From an uncultured virus (IMG/VR IMGVR_UViG_3300008954_000036) (lineage: Duplodnaviria > Heunggongvirae > Uroviricota > Caudoviricetes), in the IMG/VR virus record IMGVR_UViG_3300008954_000036: a DNA stretch of 20,000 bases. One strand, given 5' to 3'. Numbering within the stretch: position 1 is the stretch's first letter; every line of letters starts with the position of its first letter. Under the pieces are notes generated by a model. The model searched no databases and was not told the origin of the DNA. It was given only the letters and a program-made list of their open reading frames with translations. Shown piece after piece: positions 2,641 to 7,161 of the stretch. Position numbers and translations under genes: made by a program.

Positions 2641-3099
2641 ATGGGAAATATTACTTTTAAAGTAAAAAAGATGGATCAGCTTGAAATTTGTATTGAAGGT
2701 GTTGATACAAACTCTTTAGCTCAGGCACTTGCATATGCGGGTATTCTTAATACAGAAAGTAAAGTGCAAGTTCCGGGCCATGTAAGGGCCTTAGGTAAGG
2801 TCGAAGACTCCGAGGACTTTCTGTCTGAAACAGAAGAAATTGTTAAAGATACGAAAAGCTCTAAAAAAGAGGCAAGTAAAGGTAAGGCAAAGGAAGATCC
2901 TAAAAAGGAGCCTGAGCCTAAGGAAACAAAAGTTGAAGAACCTGAGGAAAGCTTTAAAGATTCTGTTTCATCGGATGATGATTTTGATGATGAGCCTTTT
3001 AAAGATGATGAATCTTTGGGGGATGATTTTGAGAACGATTCAAAGGAGGCTACTGATACGGACGATTTTGAATTTTCAGACGACGATTTCAAGGACTAA
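2641..3099 (+). CDS. Hypothetical protein with Lys/Glu-rich linker and very acidic Asp/Phe C-terminal tail
   Basis: RBS AAGGAG. The tail has repeated DDF units (DDDFDDEPF...DDFEFSDDDFKD). Confidence 0.8.
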   Translation: MGNITFKVKKMDQLEICIEGVDTNSLAQALAYAGILNTESKVQVPGHVRALGKVEDSEDFLSETEEIVKDTKSSKKEASKGKAKEDPKKEPEPKETKVEEPEESFKDSVSSDDDFDDEPFKDDESLGDDFENDSKEATDTDDFEFSDDDFKD

Positions 3100-3224: not shown

Positions 3225-5435
3225 ATGAGTAAAGAATGTACGAAATGCGAATTACATAGGTATGTAAGTGACGAATATCTGGAACAGTACCATAGGACTA
3301 TTCAGAAAATTAATCATGTAGAAGGGGAAGCTCCTGCTTTGCTGGTAATTATGCCTGCTCCTGATTTTGAACAAGATAGAAGAGTAAAGCAGTTTAGAAA
3401 TCTTATGGACAAACATTATAGGCACTATGATGATACTCAGATTTATTTATTTCACGCTGTTAGCTGTAACTACCCGAAGGGGAAAACTCTAAGTAAAAAG
3501 TGGATCGGTTTGTGTTCAGATAATCTAAAATTCGCAATAGAGGCCATAAAGAAAAAGCATAATGTTCTATCGGCCCTAGCTTGCGGGGTTGACTCTATTG
3601 TAGCGCTTAAGAAACTAGGGTTTGAGTTCTCAGATAAGCATAAGTCTTCAATCATGTATAACCGTAGGGTTAGGCATACTATAAATCCTTATGGTATTCC
3701 TACTTTTTGCGCTAGGACGTTCGATAAGCAGACTGTGGGTTCTTATAACGAAATGGTATGGGCTAGTGATCTAAAGTTTATGTGTGATTCCTTGGAAGGA
3801 AAGGTAAAGAAGCTTTCATATAAGCACCAATTAGTTTTAGGATCAGATCAAATAAAGAAGTTACATAGAGTAATTGAGAGAAAAATAAAGGAAAATGGAG
3901 AAATATGTGTATCAATAGATACAGAAACTAATAAGCTATCTATATACGGCAGAGAGTTAAGATTAAAGCTTCTAACAGTTCAGCTATCCTTCGAGTCCGG
4001 CAGAGCGTTTGTAATTCCTATTCAACATAAAGAGACTCCTAAGTTTGAGGATGATTTGAATATTAAATTCCTGCGCTGGTTTCTAAAGAATCCTAAAATC
4101 AAAAAAATTGCTCATAACGGTATGTACGATTGGAGAGTTTTTAGAAAGTTAGGGTTTCAAATTAATGGGTGGGATTGGGATACCATTCTATTACATCATC
4201 TAGCTTATGCTACTGAACCTCATGCGTTATCATATATAACTAAAGTTTTCACAGACTATGGGGATTACGACTCCGAGCTAGAGCATTATAAGTCAGATAA
4301 TCCAGAGGCAGACCCTGGAAAAGGGGGAACTTACGCTAATGTACCTCTTAAAATACTGGCTAAGTATGGGGCCGGGGATGCGGTAGTTACATACGATTTA
4401 CTGGCTATTTTATTGGATGCTGTGGATGAGCTGGGGTTAAAGGAGTTTTATTTTAATCATGTGCGACGAGCGCAATTAGCTTTTCTGAATATGTCACATA
4501 CGGGGATGAATTTAGATGAGGATAAATTGCGCTCGTATTTTAAGGAATACCAAGAGGAGCTGGATAGGTATTACAGGGAAGAAATATCACAACTACCCAC
4601 AGTAATAGAGTTTGAAAAGAATAATGAAAAGAATAAGGAATACTGGGAGTTTATTAAAGATAGAGACGCATGGTGGAAAGCTAATCCTAGAAAGAAGAAG
4701 CCGCCACAAAAAAAGGAGTTTAACCCTAAAAGTTCGGATCAGTTAGGGGTATTTTTATCAGAGTTTTGTGATTTGCCTGTATTACTTAGGAGTAAAGGAA
4801 AGCAGTTACCTTCCTATAGTAAAGAAGTAAGGGAGCATTTAATGTCCCTGCCTGAGGAGAAAAACGAGTATGGGGTAAGCTTTAGAATAGTCCATATTTT
4901 ACATGACCATCTTCTACAACGTCATGAGTTTAATACCTATATAAAAGGGATGTTAAATTCGGATATTATAGGATTAGATGGACGAATTCACGGTAATTTC
5001 AAGCTATTTGGTGCTGTTACTGGTAGAACTAGCTCTAGTGATCCCAATATGCAGAATATCCCAAGAAAGCCGCTGGTTGAGAAGTTTAATATTAAAGGAC
5101 TGTTCACCGCGCCTAAAGGTAAAAAAATAATACAAGCCGACTACGGGCAAATGGAGCTTAGAGTAGCGGCCTCGGTATCCCAGGATGAGGGTATGCTTAA
5201 AGCTTTTAATGACGGGGTGGATATTCATACTCTTACGGCGGCTAGGTTATATGGAATATCTACAGAAGAAGTGACAGATTTACAAAGGTTTTCAGCCAAG
5301 GCTATTAACTTTGGGCTTATTTACGGCAAGGGGGAGGCTGCCTTAGCAGCCGACTACTACAAAGCGCTAGACGGGGATAAGGAAAAAGCTAAGGAAATGT
5401 ATAGGAAGCTAGAACTGGAGGGCTACGGTGTATAG
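3225..5435 (+). CDS. polA: Family A DNA polymerase, N-terminal part (UDG-like domain, 3'-5' exonuclease, polymerase motifs A and B)
   Basis: Exo I DTET, Exo II HNGMYD, Exo III YGAGD. Also TGRTSSSDPNMQNIP, motif A QADYGQMELRVAA and motif B RFSAKAINFGLIYG. Motif C is absent. RBS GGAGG. Confidence 0.95.
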   Translation: MSKECTKCELHRYVSDEYLEQYHRTIQKINHVEGEAPALLVIMPAPDFEQDRRVKQFRNLMDKHYRHYDDTQIYLFHAVSCNYPKGKTLSKKWIGLCSDNLKFAIEAIKKKHNVLSALACGVDSIVALKKLGFEFSDKHKSSIMYNRRVRHTINPYGIPTFCARTFDKQTVGSYNEMVWASDLKFMCDSLEGKVKKLSYKHQLVLGSDQIKKLHRVIERKIKENGEICVSIDTETNKLSIYGRELRLKLLTVQLSFESGRAFVIPIQHKETPKFEDDLNIKFLRWFLKNPKIKKIAHNGMYDWRVFRKLGFQINGWDWDTILLHHLAYATEPHALSYITKVFTDYGDYDSELEHYKSDNPEADPGKGGTYANVPLKILAKYGAGDAVVTYDLLAILLDAVDELGLKEFYFNHVRRAQLAFLNMSHTGMNLDEDKLRSYFKEYQEELDRYYREEISQLPTVIEFEKNNEKNKEYWEFIKDRDAWWKANPRKKKPPQKKEFNPKSSDQLGVFLSEFCDLPVLLRSKGKQLPSYSKEVREHLMSLPEEKNEYGVSFRIVHILHDHLLQRHEFNTYIKGMLNSDIIGLDGRIHGNFKLFGAVTGRTSSSDPNMQNIPRKPLVEKFNIKGLFTAPKGKKIIQADYGQMELRVAASVSQDEGMLKAFNDGVDIHTLTAARLYGISTEEVTDLQRFSAKAINFGLIYGKGEAALAADYYKALDGDKEKAKEMYRKLELEGYGV

Positions 5436-5844
5436 GGGCATTATAGATTATAGGAATGCAGAGCTGGAAGATCATTGTTTATGTAATGACCTAAACACAA
5501 GGCGGAAGTTTAAGGCTACCCATGAAAGTACGCCATCCGAGATAGTGTGCATTAGGTGTTTTAAAAAGTATTGGTATGTGTATTCTGATTATTTTACAGA
5601 TAAGAAATTCTTGTTCCCTATAAGAGCTTATACAGAACTGGAAAAGGCTATAAGCATTTTAGGGCTGCCCGAATTAGGCGCACCTAGTTCATGGACTGAG
5701 CGCAGGTATAACGAAATTTGTGAGCTTGTTTGTATTGACGAAGGGCATAGATCGGAGTTCTTTAATTTTTTTGATGCTTTTAGGTACGGTGTGCTTGAGC
5801 ATAAGGCAGATTTGGGGGTTATGAATGGCTCGTTTAGACATTGA
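5428..5844 (+). CDS. Unknown Cys-rich protein (138 aa) inserted between the polymerase halves
   Basis: GTG start preceded by GGAGGG at 5417-5422. Contains HCLC...CIRC, a possible Zn site. The ORF spans the whole gap and overlaps both polymerase ORFs. Confidence 0.65.
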   Translation: MYRGIIDYRNAELEDHCLCNDLNTRRKFKATHESTPSEIVCIRCFKKYWYVYSDYFTDKKFLFPIRAYTELEKAISILGLPELGAPSSWTERRYNEICELVCIDEGHRSEFFNFFDAFRYGVLEHKADLGVMNGSFRH

Positions 5845-6340
5845 AAGACCTGAGATTTTTGATAAATTAGCAGGCGCTATGATGAAGAAGTATTTTGCGG
5901 AATTTCCAGGGATTGCGGATTGGATTAAGCATACGCAAAGACAGGCTACCCAGGATCAAGTAACGGTTTCTATTTGGGGTAGGCGGGAAGATTTACCAGA
6001 TATAACTTCTAAACATAGGATGAAGAAAGAGGAGGCCCTTAGGCAGGCTATTAATATGCCTATTCAGTCTGCTGCTAGTGATATCACTTTAGCAGCAGTA
6101 TTTAAGGTGCATGAGTGGATTAATACTGACCCGAAATGTGAAGAAGCGGGATTGGTGATGGTGAATTCGGTTCATGATTCTATCGTATTTGAGTGTAAGG
6201 AGAACTATGTAGAATGGGCATGTAAGAAAATTAAGTTAATCATGGAGGACAAGACAGGATTAGATTGGTTACTGTGTGTTCCTTCTGTAGATTTTGAAGT
6301 TGGAGATAATTACGGGGAGCTGGAAGCTCTCGATATTTAA
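5825..6340 (+). CDS. polA: Family A DNA polymerase, C-terminal part (contains motif C)
   Basis: YFAEFPGI, WGRR, RQAINMPIQSAASDI, motif C VHDSIVFE and terminal VGDNYG. GGGGG lies 6 nt before the ATG, and an in-frame TGA sits immediately upstream at 5822-5824. Confidence 0.95.
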   Translation: MARLDIERPEIFDKLAGAMMKKYFAEFPGIADWIKHTQRQATQDQVTVSIWGRREDLPDITSKHRMKKEEALRQAINMPIQSAASDITLAAVFKVHEWINTDPKCEEAGLVMVNSVHDSIVFECKENYVEWACKKIKLIMEDKTGLDWLLCVPSVDFEVGDNYGELEALDI

Positions 6341-6351
6341 GGAGAAATATT

Positions 6352-7161
6352 ATGGCTTTAAATAGAGCTAATTTTAAGGGTAGAAAAAAGCTGAGCGATA
6401 AGTACCAAAAGAGTAAAGGGTATGGCCTGGAGTTTAGACCAGAAAAGGACGTTGAATATCAGATAGCTATTATTCCTTTGATGGATATGGAAGGTAATAC
6501 TTTCCCTAATCCAGATGCCGATTTGGTGGATACTGTTAGAGTTCATCAACAAGTAGGAAAAGATAAAAAGCAATCTGTTCTATGTGCTTCTTCTTTTGGC
6601 GCTAGGTGTCAGGTTTGTGAAATTGCTAAAGGGAGGATAACTACCAGGGCTGTTCATACAGTAGTTCTGCTTAAGGAGAGGAAAACTGAGGCAGGTAGTA
6701 AGTTTATTCCAGTTAGTTTACCTATGTCTTTTAATTGCCCTCTTCAAGAACTTGGGGATGGTTACATTGACTGTATTATGAATGAGGATTTTCCTGCTAA
6801 TGATGATATCCGTAAACTTGCGATATTTAAGTATTTTGTGACCGGGGAAAAGATTGATACAGAACATAAACTTACAATCCGCCCCTCCGGTTTTATTTTT
6901 GATGTTGCTACTCTTAGGCGGATAAGGAAGGATGATAATGGGAAAGTAGTCTATGATCCACAAGCCGATAAGGATGAGCTAGTTTTTAAAACTAAGACCG
7001 AGCTAATGACTGAGCTTTCGTTGCCAGCAGTAGAGAGATTAAGTTGTCCGTATGAAAATCAGCAACTCGCAGCCGCTCGCGGGTTTGATGCTTATGAGAA
7101 GAAAGACAAGCTAGAAAGAATTCTTAGGAAGAATGAAATTATAGGAGGAGAAAATGAGTAA
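6352..7161 (+). CDS. Single-stranded DNA-binding protein, T4 gp32-like (putative)
   Basis: H...C...CxxC pattern (VHQQ...VLCASSFGARCQVCE) like the gp32 Zn site. Directly downstream of pol. RBS AAGGAG. Confidence 0.6.
   Translation: MALNRANFKGRKKLSDKYQKSKGYGLEFRPEKDVEYQIAIIPLMDMEGNTFPNPDADLVDTVRVHQQVGKDKKQSVLCASSFGARCQVCEIAKGRITTRAVHTVVLLKERKTEAGSKFIPVSLPMSFNCPLQELGDGYIDCIMNEDFPANDDIRKLAIFKYFVTGEKIDTEHKLTIRPSGFIFDVATLRRIRKDDNGKVVYDPQADKDELVFKTKTELMTELSLPAVERLSCPYENQQLAAARGFDAYEKKDKLERILRKNEIIGGENE

Follow-up and report, generated by a model that had tools for sequence, protein, structure and literature searches.

A family A DNA polymerase (PolA) of an uncultured marine phage is encoded in two ORFs with a third ORF between them, and the locus is probably a two-chain "genes-in-pieces" polymerase that was interrupted by a foreign gene and whose halves would reassemble non-covalently. 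A natural two-chain PolA is the best supported reading because the break removes almost nothing, the motifs are kept, the pieces have their own translation signals and no intron signal was found. What is new here is that the gene breaks between motifs B and C and that the insert is an orphan; the split arrangement of phage PolA is itself already known. The window referred to below is the whole stretch of DNA that was analyzed, 20,000 nt long.

The polymerase halves and their break point

The three ORFs of the ORF listing lie on the + strand in frames 0 (N-half), +1 (middle ORF) and +2 (C-half; Table 1); the N-half and the middle ORF overlap by 8 nt, the middle ORF and the C-half overlap by 20 nt, and the gap between the two polymerase ORFs is 389 nt. 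A sequence-only reading of this DNA had described the successive +1 frames and the overlaps, and had placed motifs A and B in the first ORF, ending at a TAG, and motif C (VHDS) in the last, in a different frame downstream of the gap; the ORF listing bears out this layout, and Pfam and motif reading agree on the placement of motifs A and B.

Table 1. Features of the split polymerase locus (positions in the window).
Feature	Position	Strand	Description
PolA N-half	3225..5435	+	736 aa, TAG stop; PF01612 and PF00476
N-half C-terminal tail	5355..5435	+	residues 711-736 (26 aa) and TAG stop; without counterpart in unsplit PolAs
Short local duplication	5400..5468	+	5400-5419 versus 5449-5468, 16 of 20 bases match
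Putative Shine-Dalgarno site of middle ORF	5417..5422	+	GGAGGG, 5 nt ahead of the GTG; signal reading
Middle ORF	5428..5844	+	138 aa, GTG start; orphan family
Sites ahead of C-half start	5814..5824	+	G run (5814-5818), weak ribosome-binding site; in-frame TGA (5822-5824)
PolA C-half	5825..6340	+	171 aa, ATG start; PF00476, motif C

The N-half begins with a domain of ~200 aa that has no assigned family and that appears to have lost the uracil-glycosylase signature kept by its relatives. Behind it lie the 3′-5′ exonuclease (PF01612, residues 212-398, E 2.1e-15), the thumb, and the palm and fingers through motifs A (DYGQMELR) and B (RFSAKAINFGLIYG). The C-half supplies the helix after the fingers, the remaining palm with motif C, and the C-terminus. 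PF00476 is matched by the N-half over profile positions 27-242 of 381 (E 2.4e-49) and by the C-half over positions 232-381 (E 8.1e-33), and, taken together, the chains account for a family A polymerase domain in which motifs A, B, and C are all present. The exonuclease domain is present on the N-half with residues D232, E234, D302, Y381, and D385 invariant in the alignment with relatives. Over the 907 codons of both halves there is no frameshift, internal stop or lost motif, in agreement with the earlier statement that the motifs look intact and the gene does not look decayed; VHDS is also found in the unsplit relatives P0021 and P0023 and is therefore a lineage variant rather than a sign of decay.

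The break falls in the loop after motif B. A profile of unsplit relatives follows the N-half as far as profile position 773 (N-half residue 710) and picks up the C-half at profile position 779 (C-half residue 14), so that ~5 profile positions are absent between the halves and none is duplicated; in alignment with Klenow chains, the N-half reaches chain index 452 and the C-half resumes at 459, leaving a gap of 453-458. Beyond this homology the N-half carries 26 extra residues and the C-half 13. The DNA of the N-half tail includes the ribosome-binding site of the middle ORF and its first codons. A MAFFT alignment had suggested that the tail is a degenerate copy of the opening helix of the C-half, a suggestion that is unsupported; BLASTP finds no similarity between the N-half tail and the C-half head, and the tail alone has no match in the profile of unsplit relatives. 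The proposal made earlier from the sequence, a two-subunit PolA split after the O helix, is supported by the clean break, the intact motifs and the separate translation signals, while the assembly in trans that formed part of it stays presumptive.

The GGAGGG site of the middle ORF is strong and is absent from the sequence-only reading; GGAG-type sites at similar spacing precede most genes in the window. The G run, 6 nt ahead of the C-half ATG, likewise has parallels ahead of other window genes, and both it and the in-frame TGA before that ATG, which had been pointed out earlier, are present. The 8-nt and 20-nt overlaps would be compatible with translational coupling, and no promoter- or terminator-like excess was seen in the gap between the polymerase ORFs. 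The two copies of the short duplication, one in the N-half tail and one in the middle ORF, share their codon register (YRKLELE versus YRNAELE), with a local alignment score of 23 that was reached by 15 of 2000 shuffles and by one of 186 neighboring window pairs; TGTATAGG is also present at 5398 and 5429. A candidate 5-bp target-site duplication, TAGAC at 5368-5372 and 5835-5839, was rejected as being at chance level by a rough estimate for windows of this size.

Close relatives of the split polymerase are scarce. The nearest PolA (P0020) is 45% identical and is known solely as an incomplete protein; in P0020 and another polymerase relative, P0143, an intein-like insert sits at the TGR motif. 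The relatives without a split, P0021, P0022, and P0023, are 869-922 aa long. Scanning IMG/VR with either the N-half or P0020 returned no close relative, an IMG/VR profile scan with the polymerase alignment returned six loci, one of which was examined and has an unsplit PolA of 553 aa, and blastn against phages gave no match. No insert-free allele was found either, the contigs of four runs included. The split PolA belongs to a full replication module that also has primase, helicase, flap nuclease, ligase, and SbcCD genes. The 61-kb record contains no further PolA and no PolB; the split PolA is the only visible DNA polymerase of this phage within the ~70% of the genome that the record covers, and a second polymerase could lie in the remainder.

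The middle ORF

The middle ORF is, by its codon usage and homology, a real gene, because its codons score well in frame (+0.17, versus -0.19 and -0.53 off frame; phage genes, 0.06-0.31) and because it has a homologue of near-equal length in which the cysteines and an FDAFR motif are conserved. Four conserved Cys (CxC ... CxxC) are followed by a helical part that contains FDAFR. The sole homologue, P0139 (139 aa, E 7.2e-9, 41 invariant columns), is a complete protein with its own start and stop and is homologous over the full length of the middle ORF; the family has two clusters only among 1.84 billion representatives. P0139 is a free-standing gene beside a recombinase-like ORF, a type II methyltransferase and a restriction enzyme, with no adjoining polymerase.

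Other searches with the middle ORF attached no family to it. Pfam (E ≤ 1), PHROGs, PADLOC and NCBIfam all came back without a match, and there is no signature of a homing endonuclease family (HNH, GIY-YIG, LAGLIDADG, PD-(D/E)xK, Vsr-like, and others), a very divergent nuclease being conceivable; a degenerate HNH finger between the Cys pairs was considered and rejected, HNH families matching neither member at E ≤ 1. The structure model has a mean pLDDT of 55, too poor to judge the fold, and the structural search with it gave a best Z of 4.4, with none of 48,161 chains at Z ≥ 5. The top match in the ESM Atlas scored 0.84 and named no family. A word-index search returned the middle ORF alone, tblastn against the phage collection gave no match at E ≤ 1, and no relative was found by pattern scans of IMG/VR and genome contigs with the middle-ORF/P0139 alignment or by an IMG/VR scan with P0139. 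Judged by its context, the middle ORF is probably foreign and mobile, or was once mobile. It is a rare orphan whose two occurrences are within a polymerase gene and in a recombinase/restriction-modification island, and is as such a candidate for an undescribed mobile gene.

Origin and expression of the split locus

The preferred reading can be put as a series of steps. A foreign gene of 138 codons, probably once mobile, would sit in the surface loop after motif B; the upstream polymerase part would run 26 codons into the insert and then stop; the gene of the insert would begin 8 nt ahead of the N-half stop, from its own ribosome-binding site; and the downstream part would restart at the ATG within the last 20 nt of the insert gene. 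One transcript, if the ORFs are co-transcribed as presumed, would most likely yield three separate proteins, of which the chains of 736 and 171 aa would dock without a covalent bond into one palm. The first of these chains would contribute the carboxylate of motif A and the second that of motif C, and the middle protein would be a passenger and no part of the polymerase.

That the break is instead an assembly or sequencing artefact, two single-base errors having split one continuous ORF, is extremely unlikely. In its favor, sequencing depth is low at about 3-6x, there are G runs close to either junction, and the +1 frame step occurs twice. However, contigs of three runs (one of them possibly the source sample) bridge the first junction with no differences and no indels, and public assemblies from JGI, ENA, and Logan hold three variants of the 736-aa protein, two of the 138-aa protein and the 171-aa protein. 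The three full-length 736-aa variants differ by one residue each, and single-residue differences between assemblies fall elsewhere in the proteins than at the junctions. A one-off assembly error is unlikely because the three ORFs recur in several public assemblies; the runs containing the stretch belong to two studies and include no RNA run, and the assemblies may derive from few related samples. The second junction is bridged in one run, possibly the source sample, and no joint that skips the insert occurs in contigs of four runs. Moreover, the GGGG run at 5435-5438 starts with the last base of the TAG, so that an error there cannot remove the stop, and a fused reading would put a foreign domain of 138 aa into the fingers, yet the homologue of that domain is a complete free-standing protein.

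A single polypeptide made through an unrecognized self-splicing intron, ribosomal bypassing or two +1 frameshifts is very unlikely. Phage PolA genes are classic intron hosts according to the accessible portions of PMC3428280 and PMC11878797, and the frame steps by +1 at each ORF. No Rfam match at E ≤ 10 lies in 5000-6400, although the verified PolA intron of SPO1 is detected as a group I match in the same mode and window size (25.6 bits, E 4.6e-4); this negative is of moderate weight, since Rfam is also blank (E ≤ 1) on the endonuclease-containing gap of Bacillus phage Kida. There is no room for a ribozyme core because just ~73 nt of the gap lie outside an ORF that is homologous throughout to a free-standing protein, and the middle ORF extends beyond the first conserved codons of the C-half. 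Ribosomal bypassing over 389 nt would far exceed the 50 nt known for T4 gene 60 (bioRxiv 10.1101/2022.08.31.505936, accessible portion). The sequence-only reading had allowed formally for a single protein made by two frameshifts; this now looks unlikely, with a homologue of the same length that has its own start and stop, and with no slippery site read in the 23-nt and 20-nt overlap windows. The absence of an intein or intron core, also claimed there, accords with the blank Rfam result, the lack of an intein family match and the out-of-frame position of the middle ORF.

Two further readings are each improbable to a similar degree. One holds that the polymerase was inactivated by the insertion and is dead or dying, replication being left to another polymerase in the remaining ~30% of the genome or to that of the host. 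The incompleteness of the record and an N-terminal domain apparently without the uracil-glycosylase signature of its relatives would fit such a state; against it stand codons and motifs undamaged in both halves, precisely positioned start and stop signals, an arrangement that the assemblies share exactly or with single-residue differences, and an intact surrounding replication module in a record that shows no other PolA or PolB. The other makes the 138-aa protein a subunit, clamp or regulator of the two polymerase chains in a three-part enzyme, an option raised earlier from the sequence. The middle ORF is tightly coupled to both halves by its overlaps, is conserved in every assembly seen, is without a nuclease signature, and shares at its start the short duplicated stretch with the N-half tail. 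A subunit or regulator nevertheless finds no support: the sole homologue stands alone next to a recombinase-like gene and a restriction-modification pair, with no polymerase adjoining, unsplit relatives work without such a protein, and other split PolAs have unrelated inserts (e.g., the 77-aa gp14 of MEP401).

A bolder view of the middle protein, itself rather unlikely, takes it and P0139 as a new gene-invading family. Its members would be homing nucleases of a new type, or else modules for site-specific insertion that bring along the stop, the restart and the end peptides without which the target gene would cease to work. In another version the middle protein is a dedicated clasp for a PolA with its two catalytic carboxylates on separate chains. 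On either the new-family or the clasp reading, if true, a family A polymerase would for the first time be shown to work with an active site shared by two polypeptides. Under the preferred two-chain reading, if the chains rebuild an active enzyme, a family A palm can form from two separate chains that carry motif A and motif C respectively, the loop after motif B is a natural split point for split-polymerase engineering, and the locus adds one more case of how an essential phage gene survives the entry of a foreign one.

Comparison with known split genes

Several classes of interrupted phage genes resemble this locus in part; except for the features of the locus itself, they are described here from the accessible portions of the sources cited. 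In the genes-in-pieces loci, nrdA of phage Aeh1 is split by an endonuclease gene (nrdA-a/mobE/nrdA-b) and gives a functional enzyme, and the split gp43 of T4-like phages arose through a free-standing homing endonuclease (PMC2677866). As in these cases, an essential enzyme is cut in its catalytic core into pieces with their own start and stop, and the non-covalent reconstitution described there is presumed here; the present locus likewise has two ORFs with their own translation signals and unsplit homologues elsewhere. The Aeh1 and T4-like inserts, however, are recognizable HNH or GIY-YIG endonucleases, whereas the insert here matches no endonuclease family and no homing-endonuclease insert is therefore recognized, and the host genes there are a class I ribonucleotide reductase and a family B polymerase rather than PolA.

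In the "fractured genes" of Dassa et al. (2009; PMC2677866), split inteins occur together with a free-standing endonuclease; these, too, are phage-like loci from marine metagenomes in which two pieces of a replication gene flank an ORF, and the intein-like inserts of P0020 and P0143 recall this class. No intein halves are present here; ligation of the halves by protein splicing is impossible because the 26-aa tail and the 13-aa head are too short and match no intein family (Pfam), and, in place of an in-frame insert with a Hint fold, the middle ORF lies in a frame other than that of both halves. Group I introns with HNH genes interrupt PolA genes of Herelleviridae and T7-like phages (PMC3428280, PMC11878797). 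The PolA pieces of phage Kida break right after motif B, ~10-13 residues upstream of the break described here, so that the same gene is interrupted at nearly the same place with a gene in the gap. In contrast to the ~73 nt of non-ORF sequence at the present locus, intron-type gaps are 0.8-1 kb long and include an HNH gene together with several hundred bases of non-coding DNA, and a single chain is recovered by splicing. At the present locus neither a detectable ribozyme core nor space for one outside the ORF was found.

PolA is also known as two chains. The exonuclease and polymerase have undergone gene fission in T7-like cyanophages such as S-SBP1 (Czernecki et al., 2023; PMC10201439), and PolA is split in LUZ24-like phages (PMC3890496); the chains interact there and would be expected to do so here, but those splits lie at a domain boundary, whereas the present one lies within the polymerase domain, between catalytic motifs. 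In the literature searched, no PolA split between motifs B and C was found, although the supplements of PMC10580990 and PMC11878797, of which parts were accessible, could list more sites.

The most similar arrangement is that of the cultivated lytic OM43 phages MEP401 and MEP402, which replicate with a PolA split by a small ORF of no recognized family, as do most of their "group I" relatives (PMC10580990, accessible portion); growth of these phages in culture shows that the split enzyme is functional there. The MEP401 polymerase is only distantly related, not being among the best 30 matches listed, and the two middle ORFs (77 aa in MEP401, 138 aa here) look unrelated, judged by reading the sequences. 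The break in MEP401 and MEP402 lies just before motif A and leaves motifs A, B, and C all on the second chain, whereas in the present locus the first chain carries motifs A and B and the second carries motif C. Like the present locus, those of MEP401 and MEP402 are marine and tightly packed on one strand, with PolA in two ORFs and a small orphan ORF between them.

The split gene and its surroundings

The window spans positions 40993-60992 of an IMG/VR virus record from marine metagenomes, a linear sequence of 61,108 bp that is ~70% complete. The split of its family A DNA polymerase (PolA) gene is confirmed, and the ORF listing returned exactly the three ORFs of the sequence-only reading, which occupy frames 0, +1 and +2 in turn, with overlaps of 8 nt and then 20 nt. 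Pfam assigns the N-half a 3'-5' exonuclease domain (PF01612, E 2.1e-15) together with a match to the PolA profile (E 2.4e-49) that spans 27-242 of its 381 positions; the C-half matches that profile at 232-381 (E 8.1e-33). Pfam and motif reading agree with the earlier placement of motifs A and B on the first chain and motif C (VHDS) on the second; the VHDS form is not a sign of decay, because the unsplit relatives P0021 and P0023 also have it.

Features of the split polymerase gene and flanking ORFs (window positions)
Feature	Position	Length	Start or stop
N-half	3225-5435	736 aa	TAG stop
Middle ORF	5428-5844	138 aa	GTG start
C-half	5825-6340	171 aa	ATG start
ORF between primase and polymerase	2641-3099	152 aa	
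ORF directly 3' of C-half	6352-7161	269 aa	

The surrounding replication module is normal by PHROGs matches (DnaB-like helicase, primase, split PolA, flap nuclease, ATP-dependent ligase, SbcD, SbcC, methyltransferase, dNMP kinase, and RusA), and the 61-kb, ~70% complete record holds no further PolA piece and no PolB. The 269-aa ORF has a good ribosome-binding site, phage-like codon usage and a small Cys cluster, and is without a match in Pfam, PHROGs and NCBIfam; its position in the module suggests a DNA-binding accessory protein. The 152-aa ORF, whose C-terminal half is very acidic and of low complexity, matched no family in PHROGs or other family searches.

The exact proteins of the split PolA are recorded from several assembly sources (JGI/IMG, ENA, and Logan). 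The N-half cluster has six members (three full-length 736-aa variants with single-residue differences among them, and three fragments), the middle ORF cluster four (two of 138 aa, one residue apart, and two 88-aa calls from an internal start), and the C-half cluster two (171 and 103 aa). Indel errors across 5400-5850, a concern of the sequence-only reading, find no trace at contig level: Logan contigs of four sequencing runs from two studies, at a low read depth of ~3-6x, differ from 4900-6400 by 0 substitutions, 0 indels, and 0 joints. The junction of N-half and middle ORF is spanned by X2 (1708-nt contig, possibly the source), X3 (5296-5461), and X4 (5351-5653), and that of middle ORF and C-half by X2 alone; X5, from the second study, covers 5540-5690 and 6198-6348. 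A GGGG run at 5435-5438 begins at the final base of the TAG stop, so a homopolymer error there could not abolish the stop. Together, the recorded proteins and contigs make a good, if not exhaustive, case against an artefact. At 5295-5328, much deeper contigs of other organisms match with three mismatches in all four runs; they represent unrelated polA genes that share the conserved motif B and do not reflect variation in this phage.

The break point and the middle ORF

Of the 117 unsplit relatives with at least 850 aa, four close ones and every fifth of the remainder went into a profile. Its match to the N-half ends at residue 710 (profile position 773) and its match to the C-half begins at residue 14 (position 779), so that only ~5 profile positions are absent at the break. 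On solved 605-aa Klenow chains, the alignment of the N-half ends at chain index 452 and that of the C-half begins at 459. Counted from residue 324 of E. coli Pol I, where the Klenow fragment begins, the break would fall at about Pol I residues 776-781, within a loop that lies behind motif B and its trailing short helices, ahead of the helix returning to the palm.

Residues 711-736 of the N-half (a 26-residue tail) and the first 13 residues of the C-half (the head) are extra relative to unsplit relatives. MAFFT set the tail on the helix that opens the C-half; a duplicate of that helix was rejected as its origin, as the tail has no BLASTP similarity to the head and, alone, no match to the unsplit-relative profile. 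The end of the tail and the start of the middle ORF contain a short duplication (5400-5419 and 5449-5468 are identical at 16 of 20 bases in the same codon register, and TGTATAGG is found at both 5398 and 5429). Its local alignment scores 23, a value attained in 15 of 2000 shuffles and in 1 of 186 pairs of neighbouring windows. This modest signal fits a tail encoded by inserted DNA, not by the old polymerase gene.

Several points argue that the middle ORF is a real gene of its own. A GGAGGG site lies 5 nt upstream of its GTG, as in most genes of the window; its codon score per codon is +0.17 in its own frame vs. -0.19 and -0.53 in the others (phage genes, 0.06-0.31); and its G+C is unremarkable. 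Searches of Pfam, PHROGs, PADLOC, and NCBIfam assigned it to no family. Apart from the middle ORF, the 1.84 billion representatives scanned in full with HMMER yielded a single relative, P0139, which is 139 aa long and 33% identical (E 7.2e-9). The two proteins are nearly equal in length and have 41 invariant columns, among them a CxC ... CxxC set and an FDAFR motif. P0139 is encoded within a 10-kb metagenome contig (region L002:138-4245), outside any polymerase, 27 nt downstream of a 99-aa ORF with a faint DUF4258 match (E 0.18). Its other neighbours, a recombinase-like ORF encoded on the opposite strand and a type II pair of cytosine (C5) methyltransferase (E 2.1e-71) and restriction enzyme (E 1.2e-24), point to a mobile or defence-type neighbourhood. 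Because this family is free-standing in such a neighbourhood, and because the edges of the middle protein coincide with those of the gap in the polymerase gene, an inserted foreign gene is favoured over an internal polymerase domain; from its context, the middle ORF is probably mobile. The AlphaFold model of the middle ORF is poor (pLDDT 55), and neither a structural search with it (best Z 4.4) nor the ESM Atlas (best score 0.84) gave a lead. On the most novel, less probable reading, the orphan gene would represent an undescribed gene-invading family or a dedicated clasp.

Alternative explanations and proposed expression

Removal of the gap by an intron is disfavoured, as the sequence-only reading had supposed in noting no intron core. 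Rfam returned nothing at E ≤ 10 in 5000-6400; as a control with identical mode and window size, the SPO1 PolA intron, which is established by experiment, gave a partial group I match (25.6 bits, E 4.6e-4). The tool is not fully sensitive, as it was also blank (E ≤ 1) on the endonuclease-containing gap of Bacillus phage Kida. The lack of room weighs more: the middle ORF takes up all but ~73 nt of the gap, is homologous throughout to a free-standing protein, and extends past the first conserved codons of the C-half. That the middle ORF is an intein, likewise doubted from the start, is disfavoured by its being out of frame with both halves and by the lack of any intein family match. A single protein made by two +1 frameshifts, which had been considered formally possible, would require shifts within 5413-5435 and 5825-5844; no slippery site was read in either stretch, and the product would hold a complete foreign protein inside the fingers. 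A decaying gene also fits poorly, as had been judged at the outset, with 907 codons free of lost motifs and internal stops, precisely placed start and stop signals, and an arrangement constant across assemblies. A natural two-chain PolA, the main interpretation of the sequence-only reading, is the best-supported reading of the sequence anatomy; the further suggestion that the middle protein is a polymerase subunit found no support, its sole homologue, P0139, not being in a polymerase.

For a two-chain PolA, the three ORFs would be transcribed together; no promoter- or terminator-like excess was seen in the gap. Ribosomes ending the N-half would sit 8 nt beyond the start of the middle ORF, and those ending the middle ORF 20 nt beyond the start of the C-half; coupled re-initiation would be possible at both overlaps, aided by two G-rich sites. 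The 736-aa chain would bring the exonuclease, thumb, fingers, and the palm part with motif A, and the 171-aa chain the remaining palm strands with motif C. In family A polymerases, the motif A and motif C carboxylates bind two catalytic metal ions, so the two chains would have to dock for any activity. The tail and head may aid docking or be merely tolerated at the surface.

Relatives and known split polymerases

The closest relative of the N-half, P0020 (706 aa, 45% identity), and P0143 (706 aa), which clusters with the unsplit 869-aa P0021, are available as proteins only. Both have an intein-like insert at the TGR motif and stop ~90-125 residues inside it, which gives them the look of N-parts from split-intein "fractured genes" or of truncations at contig ends. 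By Pfam, the P0020 insert has weak support (Intein_splicing, E 7.6e-4, below cut-off) and the P0143 insert no intein match at E ≤ 0.01. The N-terminal ~200-aa domain of the N-half also occurs in P0020 (alignment A4). Residues 1-200 (3225-3824) gave no uracil-DNA glycosylase signature by Pfam, PDB phmmer, or BLASTP against the relative P0023; PF03167 is found at the corresponding place in the more distant unsplit relatives P0021 and P0022 and in P0143.

Split phage polymerases are already known in general, and published accounts describe several kinds. T7-like cyanophages show exonuclease/polymerase domain fission, described as the first in PolAs (Czernecki et al. 2023, PMC10201439), and this domain boundary also separates the "part I" and "part II" annotated in LUZ24-like phages (PMC3890496). 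Two further kinds are "fractured genes" with split inteins and genes in pieces such as Aeh1 nrdA/mobE and T4-like gp43, the latter the work of free-standing endonucleases (PMC2677866). PolA group I introns occur at E. coli positions 674, 676, and 881 (PMC3428280), and about half of the PolA genes of Bastillevirinae are split by one to three introns (PMC11878797). Within the literature listings and passages covered, no published break falls between motifs B and C with the catalytic carboxylates on separate chains and an insert other than an endonuclease, intein, or intron.

The PolA of Kida (L007:3250-4650) is interrupted directly behind the YG of motif B, ~10-13 residues upstream of where the present gene breaks, and its gap of ~1 kb contains an HNH gene. 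No group I intron was found in that gap (Rfam, E ≤ 1), though Bastillevirinae PolA introns are documented (PMC11878797); the gap is either an intron missed by the Rfam model or not an intron. PolA in two ORFs around a small unknown ORF is reported for two cultivated OM43 phages, MEP401 and MEP402, and for most of their relatives from metagenomes (PMC10580990). The middle ORF of MEP401 (77 aa) looks unrelated to the one described here, judged by reading alone, and its break lies just ahead of motif A with all three motifs on the second chain, whereas here the first chain has motifs A and B and the second has motif C.
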